From Shigella phage ESh24: 64,000 nt of DNA. A program made the translations under genes and the position numbers. Of this stretch, positions 52,117 to 53,522 are shown in pieces. Numbering within the stretch: position 1 is the stretch's first letter; each line of letters starts with the position of its first letter. Location of the stretch: sequence record ON528734. One strand, written 5' to 3'. Under the pieces are notes generated by a model. It saw only the letters and a list, made by a program, of their open reading frames with translations, made no database searches and had not been told where the DNA came from.

Positions 52117-52189
52117 TGGGAATTAGCCAAGTTGGTAAGGCATAGCACTTTGACTGCTAGATGCAAAGGTTCGAGTCCTTTATTCCCAG
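52117..52189 (+). tRNA. tRNA-Gln (anticodon UUG)
   Basis: Acceptor TGGGAAT/ATTCCCA, anticodon loop CTTTGAC, T-arm GGTTCGAGTCC. Confidence 0.8.
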
Positions 52190-52190
52190 C

Positions 52191-52277
52191 GCGAGAATGG
52201 TCAAATTGGTAAAGGCACAGCACTTAAAATGCTGCGGAATGATTTCCTTGTGGGTTCGAGTCCCACTTCTCGCACCA
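52191..52277 (+). tRNA. tRNA-Leu (anticodon UAA), type II long variable arm
   Basis: Acceptor GCGAGAA/TTCTCGC, loop CTTAAAA, encoded CCA. Confidence 0.8.
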
Positions 52278-52282
52278 AATTT

Positions 52283-52356
52283 GCGGATATCGTATAATGG
52301 CATTACCTCAGACTTCCAATCTGATGATGTGAGTTCGATTCTCATTATCCGCTCCA
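52283..52356 (+). tRNA. tRNA-Gly (anticodon UCC)
   Basis: Acceptor GCGGATA/TATCCGC, loop CTTCCAA, encoded CCA. Confidence 0.8.
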
Positions 52357-52402
52357 ATTTATGACTCGTCGTGAGACGCTCAGTTCTTTATTAGGGACTG
52401 AT

Positions 52403-53011
52403 ATGCATTTTTATCTTTATAAAATAACAAATAAAATTAATAATAAAATTTATATTGGTGTGCATTCTACCGAAAATTTAGATGATGGATATATGGGTTC
52501 TGGTAAATTATTAAAAAGAGCCCAAGATAAATATGGTATAGAAAATTTTTCTAAAGAAATATTAGAGTATTTTGACGATAAAGAATCTATGCTTGAAGCC
52601 GAGAAAAATATTGTCACAGAAGAGTTTTTAAATAGACCAGATGTGTATAATTTAAAACTTGGAGGTGAAGGTGGATGGGATCATATAAATAATTATCCTA
52701 TGACAGATCAGCAACGCGAATTAATTTCATTGGGTGTTAAAAAGGCACATTCTAATGGAAAATTAAAAGGATGGTCTTCAAATGGATTAATGAAGAATGG
52801 CTTTGCTGGTAAAACTCATTCTCAAGAAGCTAAACGTAAAATAGCAAAAGCAAACGAAGCAAAAGTTTCTGTGGATGAAAGAAAAAGAAGAATAGAAATT
52901 TCTAAATTATATGATTTTTCTAAACGTGGCGAATTGTCTAAATATGCTAAGCATATTGGCGTAAGTCATACTCAAGCAAAAAGAATTCTAAATCAAATTA
53001 ACAATATATAA
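52403..53011 (+). CDS. segB: GIY-YIG homing endonuclease (SegB-like) inside the tRNA cluster
   Basis: Start set at MHFYLYKITNKINNKIYIGV (GIY-YIG core; track start 52361 abuts tRNA-Gly with no RBS); basic C-terminal DNA-binding region. Confidence 0.8.
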   Translation: MHFYLYKITNKINNKIYIGVHSTENLDDGYMGSGKLLKRAQDKYGIENFSKEILEYFDDKESMLEAEKNIVTEEFLNRPDVYNLKLGGEGGWDHINNYPMTDQQRELISLGVKKAHSNGKLKGWSSNGLMKNGFAGKTHSQEAKRKIAKANEAKVSVDERKRRIEISKLYDFSKRGELSKYAKHIGVSHTQAKRILNQINNI

Positions 53012-53017
53012 ATATTT

Positions 53018-53107
53018 GGAGGCGTGGCAGAGTGGTTTAATGCACCGGTCTTGAAAATCGGCAGTCGCTCCGGCGACTCATAGGTTCAAATCCTATCGCC
53101 TCCGCCA
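53018..53107 (+). tRNA. tRNA-Ser (anticodon UGA), type II
   Basis: Acceptor GGAGGCG/CGCCTCC, loop CTTGAAA, long variable arm, CCA. Confidence 0.8.
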
Positions 53108-53112
53108 GTTTT

Positions 53113-53188
53113 GCTGATTTAGCTTAGTAGGTAGAGCAACTCACTTGTAATGAGAAGGTCGGCGGTTCGATTCCGTCAATCAGCACCA
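53113..53188 (+). tRNA. tRNA-Thr (anticodon UGU)
   Basis: Full cloverleaf traced by hand (acceptor GCTGATT/AATCAGC, loop CTTGTAA). Confidence 0.8.
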
Positions 53189-53189
53189 A

Positions 53190-53264
53190 GGCCCTGTAGC
53201 TGGAAGGTTCAAGCAAGCGACTCATAATCGCCAGATGGTGGTTCAATTCCACCCAGGGCCACCA
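53190..53264 (+). tRNA. tRNA with CAU anticodon, Ile2 (lysidine) type
   Basis: Loop CTCATAA; anticodon arm GCGACTCATAATCGC resembles the bacterial ileX type rather than Met. Confidence 0.7.
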
Positions 53265-53276
53265 AATTATGAATTA

Positions 53277-53363
53277 GGGGAGTTATCCCGTAGAGGTAGC
53301 GGTGTGGACTGTAAATCCATTGTCATTGCGACTCGGGTGGTTCGACTCCATCACTCCCCACCA
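53277..53363 (+). tRNA. tRNA-Tyr (anticodon GUA), type II
   Basis: Acceptor GGGGAGT/ACTCCCC, loop CTGTAAA, long variable arm. Confidence 0.7.
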
Positions 53364-53367
53364 ATTT

Positions 53368-53443
53368 GGATGTGTAGCTCAATGGCAGAGCGATCGCCTG
53401 TTAAGCGATTGGTTATAGGTTCGAATCCTATCACGTCCGCCAA
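53368..53443 (+). tRNA. tRNA-Asn (anticodon GUU)
   Basis: Acceptor GGATGTG/CACGTCC, loop CTGTTAA. Confidence 0.7.
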
Positions 53444-53446
53444 ATA

Positions 53447-53522
53447 CGAGGCATAGCTCAGAAGGAAGAGCAAGGACCTTCTAAGTCCTAGGTCGTAGGT
53501 TCGATCCCTACTGCCTCGACCA
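53447..53522 (+). tRNA. tRNA-Arg (anticodon UCU)
   Basis: Full cloverleaf traced by hand; loop CTTCTAA; CCA encoded. Confidence 0.8.

Follow-up and report, generated by a model that had tools for sequence, protein, structure and literature searches.

The window analyzed here, a stretch of 64,000 nucleotides from Shigella phage ESh24 (sequence record ON528734), contains a cluster of nine tRNA genes that is interrupted by a gene for a GIY-YIG homing endonuclease. The region is very probably an ordinary Tequatrovirus tRNA operon with an embedded homing endonuclease, the parts of which are exchanged as modules. Relative to a ten-tRNA array of the type present in phage RB3, the endonuclease gene would have replaced tRNA-Pro, and an open reading frame (ORF) for 116 amino acids (aa) would have been added after tRNA-Arg. 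Relative to T4, three module exchanges would have to be assumed, i.e. tRNA-Pro against the endonuclease gene, Ile-segB-Arg against CAU(Ile2)-Tyr-Asn-Arg, and the extra ORF in the window. Such exchanges could occur in mixed infections, when the endonuclease cuts the genome of a rival and the break is repaired from the genome that carries the endonuclease. For the resident enzyme, we infer activity and cleavage targets. Cleavage in tRNA genes and homing have been demonstrated for T4 SegB (PMC2330249), and cleavage has been demonstrated for T6 SegB (PMC13096335). The general idea of the first-pass annotation, that homing endonucleases reshuffle the island, thus has experimental backing.

Transcription of the operon probably starts at a middle-type promoter near 52023 and proceeds rightward to a terminator near 54203; host enzymes would then process the transcript to the mature RNAs. 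The tRNAs would mostly supply A- or U-ending codons, which the AT-rich phage over-uses in comparison with Escherichia coli. At least tRNA-Tyr may also buffer host defenses that destroy tRNA.

The tRNA genes

tRNA genes were called with ARAGORN on the whole window, and the Rfam covariance model RF00005 (gathering score 29 bits) served as an independent check. Nine genes were found, all on the plus strand, the first starting at 52117 and the last ending at 53522. Every one of them passes the Rfam gathering score, eight with 59-74 bits and expect (E) values of 1e-10 to 1e-14. Together with the endonuclease gene they are arranged as follows.

52117..52190, plus strand: tRNA-Gln (UUG); ARAGORN; Rfam 66 bits; 74/74 identical to T4 and T6
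52191..52277, plus strand: tRNA-Leu (UAA); ARAGORN; Rfam 59.3 bits; 87/87 identical to T4, T6, RB18 and RB68
52283..52356, plus strand: tRNA-Gly (UCC); ARAGORN; Rfam 63.3 bits; 73/74 identical to T4
52403..53011, plus strand: free-standing GIY-YIG homing endonuclease gene, 202 aa; longest ORF from 52361 (52361-53011)
53018..53107, plus strand: tRNA-Ser (UGA); ARAGORN; Rfam 59.3 bits; 86/90 identical to T4
53113..53188, plus strand: tRNA-Thr (UGU); ARAGORN; Rfam 71.7 bits; 72/76 identical to T4
53190..53264, plus strand: tRNA with anticodon CAU, supported as Ile2 (lysidine) type; ARAGORN; Rfam 59.9 bits; 47/75 identical to T4 tRNA-Ile, 75/75 to RB18 and RB68
53277..53363, plus strand: tRNA-Tyr (GUA), long variable arm; ARAGORN; Rfam 30.2 bits; 85/87 identical to T6, 87/87 to RB18
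53368..53442, plus strand: tRNA-Asn (GUU); ARAGORN; Rfam 74.1 bits; 75/75 identical to T2 and RB3
53447..53522, plus strand: tRNA-Arg (UCU); ARAGORN; Rfam 68.1 bits; 48/76 identical to T4 and T6, 74/76 to RB18

The number, anticodons and outer limits of the tRNA genes are those given in the first-pass annotation, and the endonuclease gene proposed to split the cluster between Gly and Ser is indeed present there as a GIY-YIG ORF above the Pfam cut-off. The T4 set given there, eight tRNAs that include Pro but neither Tyr nor Asn, matches the T4 record NC_000866. Neither did the covariance scan assign other identities nor does T4 have the same complement. When the Rfam scan was run at low threshold, only tRNA-derived chance matches appeared beyond the tRNAs (Plastid-ycf2, sX4, tRNA-Sec and U12), all of them below the cut-offs.

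The weakest Rfam score, 30.2 bits against the cut-off of 29, belongs to tRNA-Tyr. This call holds despite the low score because the near-identical tRNA-Tyr of T6 (85/87) has been detected as RNA by northern blot (PMC13096335). Over its 5' half, the tRNA-Tyr segment shows about 95% identity to the tRNA-Tyr genes of 135-138-kb phages such as LL12, phiWec189 and JeffSchatz and about 85% identity to that of phage T5, a likeness that points to one tRNA-Tyr lineage common to phages of very different genome size. By its sequence, tRNA-Arg (UCU) is not orthologous to the tRNA-Arg of T4 and T6.

The tRNA with the anticodon CAU carries conflicting labels: it is called Met by ARAGORN, tRNA-Met in the RB3 deposit and in RB68, and Ile in RB18. 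Its acceptor stem GGCCCTG...CAGGGCC, with the pairs C4-G69 and C5-G68, is as in E. coli ileX, and the whole anticodon stem-loop GCGACTCATAATCGC is common to both. E. coli metT and metU differ from it by a GGCTACG acceptor stem and the anticodon stem-loop ATCACTCATAATGAT. In E. coli, tRNA-Ile2 is distinguished from elongator tRNA-Met by the TilS determinants, namely C4-G69 and C5-G68 together with an ileX-like anticodon stem. Across 5424 E. coli genomes, the best matches are genes annotated as tRNA-Ile. The best match of all probably sits in a prophage, since an antiterminator Q gene lies about 200 nucleotides (nt) upstream of it. An identity as initiator tRNA was ruled out by the G1-C72 pair. 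The ileX-like stems and the tRNA-Ile best matches support the first-pass proposal of an Ile2-type tRNA, which is predicted to read AUA after lysidine modification, and Ile2-type is a better label than Met. With 47 of 75 positions identical, the CAU tRNA is not an ortholog of T4 tRNA-Ile. Close phages can thus carry tRNAs that have the same anticodon (CAU, Arg UCU) but are not orthologs. In its D-arm, the CAU tRNA departs from the norm with GCTGGAAGGTTCAAGC in place of the usual GCTCAGTGGTTAGAGC, so that neither the fourth D-stem pair nor the usual A14 is obvious. The tRNA with this odd D-arm is nevertheless 100% conserved in RB18 and RB68.

Comparison with related phages

The 2.7-kb region matches 1073 phage records, mostly from Escherichia and Shigella phages, and Tequatrovirus genomes such as Shfl2, ECML-134 and CrRp10 share about 96% identity with the wider window. 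No database record is identical to the window. RB68 and phiC600P9 have the identical annotated order Gln, Leu, Gly, SegB-like endonuclease, Ser, Thr, CAU, Tyr, Asn, Arg and 116-aa ORF, and in RB68 the stable RNA genes rnaD and rnaC are annotated as well. RB51, RB68, phiC600P9 and HY01 are collinear with the window, with 95-96% identity over about 2.5 kb and point differences only. RB18 and CrRp10 contain one extra tRNA-His between Asn and Arg and otherwise show the same arrangement. The island is already known, the same complement and order being annotated in GenBank relatives, and its annotation in RB51, RB68, phiC600P9 and HY01 leaves it little weight as a discovery. A 2008 paper already described tRNA-Tyr and tRNA-Asn of T2L, RB1 and RB3 and connected them with SegB homing (PMC2330249), and the role of the SegB-linked tRNA-Tyr in escape from Septu was published in 2026 (PMC13096335).

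The same order may be built from different alleles: the Asn and Arg tRNAs of RB68 are only 84% and 82% identical to those of the window, compared with 100% and 97% for RB18. A loss of tRNA-His by recombination between the 3' ends of Asn and His, considered on the basis of a 34-nt overlap of BLAST blocks, was rejected, as these ends are only loosely alike in the T-arm.

RB3, deposited with the 2008 SegB study (AJ884578 and AJ880101 for RB3 and T2L; PMC2330249), has an endonuclease-free array of ten tRNAs in the order Gln, Leu, Gly, Pro, Ser, Thr, CAU, Tyr, Asn and Arg, followed by rnaD and rnaC. tRNA-Pro is retained in both RB3 and T2, and neither of them has an intact endonuclease gene. The window is homologous to RB3 at 52077-52361, 53017-53522 and 53888-54233, and the block from Ser to Arg (53017-53522) is 98.0% identical. 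Positions 286-365 of RB3 (80 bp comprising a spacer and tRNA-Pro) are replaced by 655 bp in the window (52362-53016), which consist of the leader and the endonuclease gene. Homology to both T4 and RB3 stops at 52361, 5 nt past the 3' end of tRNA-Gly, and resumes at 53017. The junction reads Gly-Pro-Ser in RB3, T2, T4 and two IMG/VR contigs and Gly-endonuclease-Ser in the window, RB18, RB68, phiC600P9 and CrRp10, with identical breakpoints. Gene content and homology breakpoints, like the domain mosaic of the endonuclease described below, are direct observations.

T4 (NC_000866) has the order Gln, Leu, Gly, Pro, Ser, Thr, Ile, segB, Arg, rnaD and rnaC. It shares the flanks with the window (trna.2 upstream; rnaD, rnaC and e.8 downstream), and its Gln and Leu tRNAs are identical to those of the window while Gly, Ser and Thr are 95-99% identical. 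T4 likewise harbors a GIY-YIG endonuclease inside the array, with a catalytic domain that is 96% identical and a ribosome-binding-site hairpin regulation that is similar in kind. On the other hand, T4 has tRNA-Pro at the slot of the window's endonuclease, and its segB lies between Ile and Arg, at the place of the window's Tyr and Asn. T4 SegB furthermore has an unrelated C-terminal half and a different leader, the Ile and Arg tRNAs share only 63% identity with the window's CAU and Arg tRNAs, and the 116-aa ORF is missing. Homology to T4 covers 51700-52361, 53017-53209 and 53889-54233 and is absent from 53210-53888. This gap and the low identity of the CAU and Arg tRNAs indicate that the right half of the array is a different cassette. 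The contrast between Ile-segB-Arg in T4 and CAU-Tyr-Asn-Arg-ORF matches the description of T2L (PMC2330249).

T6 has seven annotated tRNAs in the order Gln, Leu, Gly, Thr, CAU, Tyr, segB and Arg, and lacks Pro, Ser and Asn (ARAGORN misses the annotated Thr). Its segB directly follows Tyr and precedes Arg, the encoded protein has a C-terminal half of the T4 type, and its CAU and Arg tRNAs, again of the T4 type, likewise share only 63% identity with those of the window. Like the window, T6 has an endonuclease inside the array, and the likeness comprises the leader and first 96 aa of the endonuclease (97-99% identical) and tRNA-Tyr (98%).

In an annotated phage collection, records covering at least 80% of the query were counted.

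Tyr-Asn pair: 395 records
Gly-Pro-Ser junction: 441 records
Full-length endonuclease gene, resident type: 56 records

The 56 endonuclease genes are 97.8-99.7% identical to that of the window. A survey of IMG/VR anchored on trna.2 recovered only 7 loci, too few for frequencies. Although they set the island apart from T4, Tyr and Asn are not a novelty: both occur in the endonuclease-free RB3 and in T2, and the pair is present in about 395 phage records. Judged by this distribution, Tyr plus Asn is the common state and T4 the derived case: T4 lacks both because its own segB cassette occupies their place. The first-pass annotation had taken the tRNA set as a sign of cassette turnover, plausibly driven by the resident endonuclease. 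This fits the exchange at the Pro slot, which is marked by the resident gene, but not Tyr and Asn, which were not brought by it.

The resident endonuclease

The real start of the endonuclease gene is likely ATG 52403, not 52361, because the 609-nt form starting at the equivalent position is annotated in RB68 and phiC600P9, T4 and T6 SegB start at the equivalent residue, and a Shine-Dalgarno sequence AGGGA (52393-52397) lies 5 nt before this ATG. ATG 52361 abuts the end of tRNA-Gly and has no AGGGA-type site upstream. The start should therefore read 52403 in annotations. The gene is preceded by a structured leader.

52357..52402, plus strand: endonuclease leader, 46 nt, two hairpins; RNA fold -14.5 kcal/mol, z -2.0

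AGGGA is paired within the second hairpin (52380-52401); the hairpin was also detected by the terminator scan. The leader is conserved before T6 segB and before the Klebsiella phage homolog, with one-sided changes that preserve pairing. An analogous control by a ribosome-binding-site hairpin has been reported for T4 segB (PMC2330249, PMC2988022).

The GIY-YIG domain (PF01541) scores 27 bits against a Pfam cut-off of 22.6. The YLY and YIG motifs are present, as are Y17 and G19, whose mutation was used to inactivate T6 SegB (PMC13096335). In the C-terminal half, NUMOD3 is found at or just above its cut-off of 20.4 bits (20.4-22.8 bits), and the match of HTH_10 to the helix-turn-helix-like C-terminal end is weak (13.6-15 bits, cut-off 23.1). 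A sequence search of the PDB with the endonuclease gave no match at E up to 1.

Residues 1-96 are 99% identical to T6 SegB (95/96) and 96% identical to T4 SegB, both of which are experimentally active (PMC2330249, PMC13096335). At the DNA level, 52417-52691 is 99.3% identical to the 5' half of T4 segB, out of order relative to T4, and 52348-52691 is 97.4% identical to T6 segB. Past aa 96 or nt 52691, no similarity to T4 and T6 SegB is left. In line with this, only aa 17-131 of the 216-aa ORF aligned to T4 SegB in BLASTP, with 83% identity and near-identity up to about residue 110, and the C-terminal remainder of this ORF gave no significant BLASTP match to T4 SegB. T4 segB occupies the slot between tRNA-Ile and tRNA-Arg (PMC2988022, Table 1). 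The resident endonuclease is not a strict ortholog of T4 SegB because its DNA-binding half is unrelated and its slot is a different one (Gly/Ser, not Ile/Arg). The label 'segB' given to the gene in the first-pass annotation is hence apt for the catalytic half, which is shared with T4 SegB, but not for the DNA-binding half and the insertion slot. In annotations, one and the same name covers two proteins whose DNA-binding halves are unrelated. Among 198 matching records, a single one contains two matches to the endonuclease gene, indicating that the two endonuclease types rarely, if ever, coexist.

The C-terminal half leads to other phages. Over its full length the endonuclease is collinear with homologs from the Klebsiella phages Lion_ER11 and Mineola, with 60% identity overall and about 95% over the last 40 aa, and also with a homolog from Aeromonas phage Aes012. 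The C-terminal motif GVSHTQA(K/R)R, which reads GVSHTQAKR in the window protein, is kept as far as the Aeromonas phage homolog. In all three phages (3/3) the homolog gene resides between tRNA-Gly and tRNA-Pro. In these members of Jiaodavirus (Mineola, Lion_ER11) and Tulanevirus (Aes012) it lies, just as in the window, immediately downstream of tRNA-Gly(UCC) and is preceded by a homologous leader. Unlike the window, in which Pro is missing and Ser follows the endonuclease, these phages keep tRNA-Pro, and in the Klebsiella phages the stop codon of the endonuclease is located inside the 5' end of tRNA-Pro. The catalytic domains of the Jiaodavirus and Tulanevirus homologs are only about 65% identical to that of the window, which is near-identical to those of T4 and T6 SegB. 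In Shigella phage vB_SdyM_006 (Bragavirus), a full-length homolog is found just upstream of tRNA-Gly. The conserved home of the DNA-binding lineage would be the tRNA-Gly/tRNA-Pro junction of T4-like phages of at least three genera.

Shorter and more distant relatives of the C-terminal half occupy other slots of tRNA arrays, and for a further homolog, in phage KPN6, no tRNA is annotated in the vicinity. In T2, the ORF trna.1 (T2 locus 2810-3211) lies between tRNA-Ser and the CAU tRNA and replaces the tRNA-Thr of RB3 and the window. Its alignment to the NUMOD3 and helix-turn-helix half of the window endonuclease spans 115 aa with 33% identity (E 1e-15); a GIY-YIG domain is absent. As only the C-terminal half without the catalytic domain is present, trna.1 can be regarded as an endonuclease remnant. 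Three slots of one array have thus been hit by seg-type elements: Pro in the window, Thr in T2 by the remnant, and Tyr/Asn in T4 and T6 by segB.

It is conceivable, although we would put it somewhat short of probable, that the endonuclease is a natural domain-swap chimera that combines the catalytic module of SegB with the DNA-binding module of the Gly/Pro lineage and that its target, if the enzyme is active, lies in or beside tRNA-Pro and not in tRNA-Asn. In that case, different slots of the same 1.4-kb array would be guarded by two enzymes that have their catalytic core in common, and a mixed infection with T4 would lead to reciprocal conversion, with T4 SegB cutting tRNA-Asn of the window genome and the resident enzyme cutting the Gly-Pro region of T4. 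Our literature search, the coverage of which was incomplete, found no paper describing a domain-swapped variant or its slot, and a search for 'SegB-like' was also empty. A domain-swapped SegB variant with a conserved Gly/Pro home would be a modest refinement, not a new kind of system.

A predicted T4 SegB target site in tRNA-Asn

T4 SegB recognizes a 27-bp site built on the T-arm motif GGTTCRANTCC, and its preferred site is located in tRNA-Asn of T2L, RB1 and RB3 (PMC2330249). This preferred site differs from the weaker site in tRNA-Ser at G6, A16, G18, A26 and A27 (PMC2330249). In the window, positions 53418-53444 in tRNA-Asn read GGTTCGAATCCTATCACGTCCGCCAAA and fit the preferred recognition site; compared with the Ser site of the window (53083-53109), GGTTCGAATCCTATCACGTCCGCCAAA differs at exactly positions 6, 16, 18, 26 and 27. 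The window, RB18, CrRp10, RB3, T2 and phiC600P9 all contain the exact 27-mer, whereas T4 and T6, the carriers of the T4-type enzyme, lack it. The tRNA-Asn of RB68 lacks the exact 27-bp preferred-type site. Because of the exact preferred site in tRNA-Asn, the window genome is predicted to be a recipient for homing of T4-type SegB, while its own related element sits one slot away.

Codon supply, defense and the history of the island

Codon usage of the window ORFs was compared with a 50-kb sample of E. coli K-12. The A- or U-ending codons read by the nine tRNAs are 1.7 to 9 times commoner in the window ORFs than in E. coli (AGA, 9.2x; ATA, 6.0x; GGA, 4.2x; TCA, 4.1x; ACA, 3.6x; AAT, 3.4x; TTA, 3.1x; TAT, 2.4x; CAA, 1.7x). 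This enrichment fits the classical view of a codon-supply benefit, which would apply to all nine tRNAs. A special enrichment in late genes, which the first-pass annotation had suggested to look for, is not apparent: AAT amounts to 46.3 per thousand in the structural-gene block versus 42.5 in other ORFs and TAT to 33.3 versus 33.4, so that there is no late-specific signal and the excess over E. coli extends to the phage as a whole.

Several points weigh against the operon as we describe it. The codon CCA is twofold enriched compared with E. coli although tRNA-Pro is absent, so codon supply does not appear to be a strong constraint, and the tRNA region of T4 has been called non-essential (PMC2330249). 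The direction of each exchange, gain or loss, was deduced from distribution and not from a rooted phylogeny, and the evidence for transcription, processing and endonuclease activity is sequence-based here. The middle-promoter call draws on a short pattern and homology to T4, and a sigma-70 promoter scan of 51000-54600 performed at chance level (13 found, 13.2 expected). Finally, the annotators of RB51 and RB68 call the endonuclease a 'truncated SegB-like' protein, and a 22-aa segment of the Klebsiella homologs is missing, so that the enzyme could be impaired. This last point would suit an unlikely alternative in which the endonuclease gene is a decaying, inactive passenger, a relic in a static island. 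The protein has 202 aa compared with 220-221 aa for T4, T6 and Klebsiella homologs, the missing segment contains a NUMOD3, and trna.1 of T2, of which only the C-terminal half is left, provides a precedent for decay within the array. However, the ORF is intact in the window, RB18, RB68, phiC600P9 and CrRp10, the catalytic domain is identical to that of the active T6 SegB at 95 of 96 positions, and both the ribosome-binding-site hairpin leader and, out to the Aeromonas phage homolog, the motif GVSHTQA(K/R)R are conserved. Moreover, the N-terminal 275 nt are 99.3% identical to T4, above the flanking tRNA genes (about 94-98%), which suggests recent exchange rather than decay.

Other explanations concern the tRNAs themselves. 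That Tyr and Asn are recent additions to a T4-like island of eight tRNAs, acquired through turnover by the endonuclease now residing between Gly and Ser, is very improbable. While the island does differ from that of T4 in the Tyr and Asn genes, the resident gene sits within the array and SegB-family enzymes drive the replacement of markers in the tRNA region (PMC2330249), both tRNAs are found in endonuclease-free arrays (RB3 and two IMG/VR contigs) and also in T2 with its mere remnant. The pair is present in 395 records against 56 for the resident-type endonuclease, the insertion footprint of the resident gene is limited to the Pro slot, and the block from Ser to Arg is 98.0% identical to that of the endonuclease-free RB3. 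Furthermore, the Tyr-Asn slot is that of the T4/T6-type segB, and tRNA-Asn holds the preferred site of T4 SegB (PMC2330249). A somewhat better case, though we still consider it rather doubtful, can be made for a tRNA set that mainly serves against defense, replacing host tRNAs cleaved by defense systems, with codon supply as a secondary function and the endonuclease amplifying the tRNA gene that is needed. In fact, the T6 tRNA-Tyr, which is identical to that of the window at 85 of 87 positions, rescues T6 from Septu when overexpressed or amplified, this amplification needs the nuclease activity of SegB, and tRNA-Tyr of T5, about 85% identical over the 5' half, resists retron-Eco7 (PMC13096335). 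The window endonuclease shares its leader and catalytic domain with T6 SegB. On the other hand, Septu cuts host and phage tRNA-Tyr alike, and wild-type T6 with a single copy is sensitive (PMC13096335). In the window, Ser, Thr and CAU lie between the endonuclease and Tyr, so that the 718-bp repeat unit of T6 has no equivalent. All nine tRNAs match over-used codons, as codon supply alone would predict, and we know of no defense system that targets most of the other eight tRNAs, which counts against a mainly defensive role. An ordinary tRNA operon exchanged in modules remains our preferred explanation.

Transcription unit, stable RNAs and neighboring genes

The features that surround the array are the following.

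52023..52047, plus strand: candidate T4 middle-type promoter upstream of tRNA-Gln; MotA-box-like TGCTTTA, 12-nt spacer, TATTAT
53539..53889, plus strand: 116-aa ORF, function unknown, between tRNA-Arg and rnaD; PHROG 3355, E 8e-55
53886..54005, plus strand: homolog of rnaD (species 2 stable RNA); coordinates transferred from T4 and RB3
54012..54152, plus strand: homolog of rnaC (species 1 stable RNA); fold -50.2 kcal/mol, z -4.1
54203..54231, plus strand: intrinsic terminator-like hairpin of 10 pairs (7 G-C) followed by a T run; terminator scan

We infer the middle promoter at 52023-52047 from the short pattern and T4 homology: the pattern has 16 matches in the window compared with 4.9 expected, and the candidate lies in DNA that is 97.9% identical to T4, where the middle promoter of the tRNA operon has been located in the corresponding DNA (PMC2330249). 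The hairpin at 54203-54231 is likely the end of the tRNA/stable-RNA transcription unit; in T4, transcription of a single operon ends after the species I RNA gene (PMC2330249).

The region of rnaD and rnaC, downstream of tRNA-Arg and followed by the terminator, is 94.8% identical to T4 over 346 nt; Rfam has no family for either RNA. A 97-nt 'tRNA-Phe(aaa)' called by ARAGORN at 54057-54153 lies inside rnaC and is not a tRNA, as it was not reported by Rfam even at E up to 1. This spurious call arises because the tRNA-like 3' part of rnaC contains a T-arm-like hairpin CCGGGTTCGAATCCCGG, with GGTTCGAATCC at 54130, and should be discarded from annotations as part of rnaC.

The 116-aa ORF has no Pfam match. 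A tblastn comparison found it in T2, RB18 and RB68 but not in T4, T6 or RB3. With its stop codon, the ORF extends into the predicted 5' end of rnaD.

The T4 late-promoter core TATAAATA occurs 22 times in the window compared with about 10 expected by chance. Two matches lie in or at the endonuclease gene. One of them (53007-53014) overlaps its stop codon, 4 nt before tRNA-Ser, and the other (52684-52691) ends exactly where homology to T4 and T6 segB stops. Upstream of the island, an internal head protein gene (50810-51067, PHROG 3499) occupies a variable slot, which is taken by Ip5 in RB68, Ip6 in RB18 and ipI in T4.

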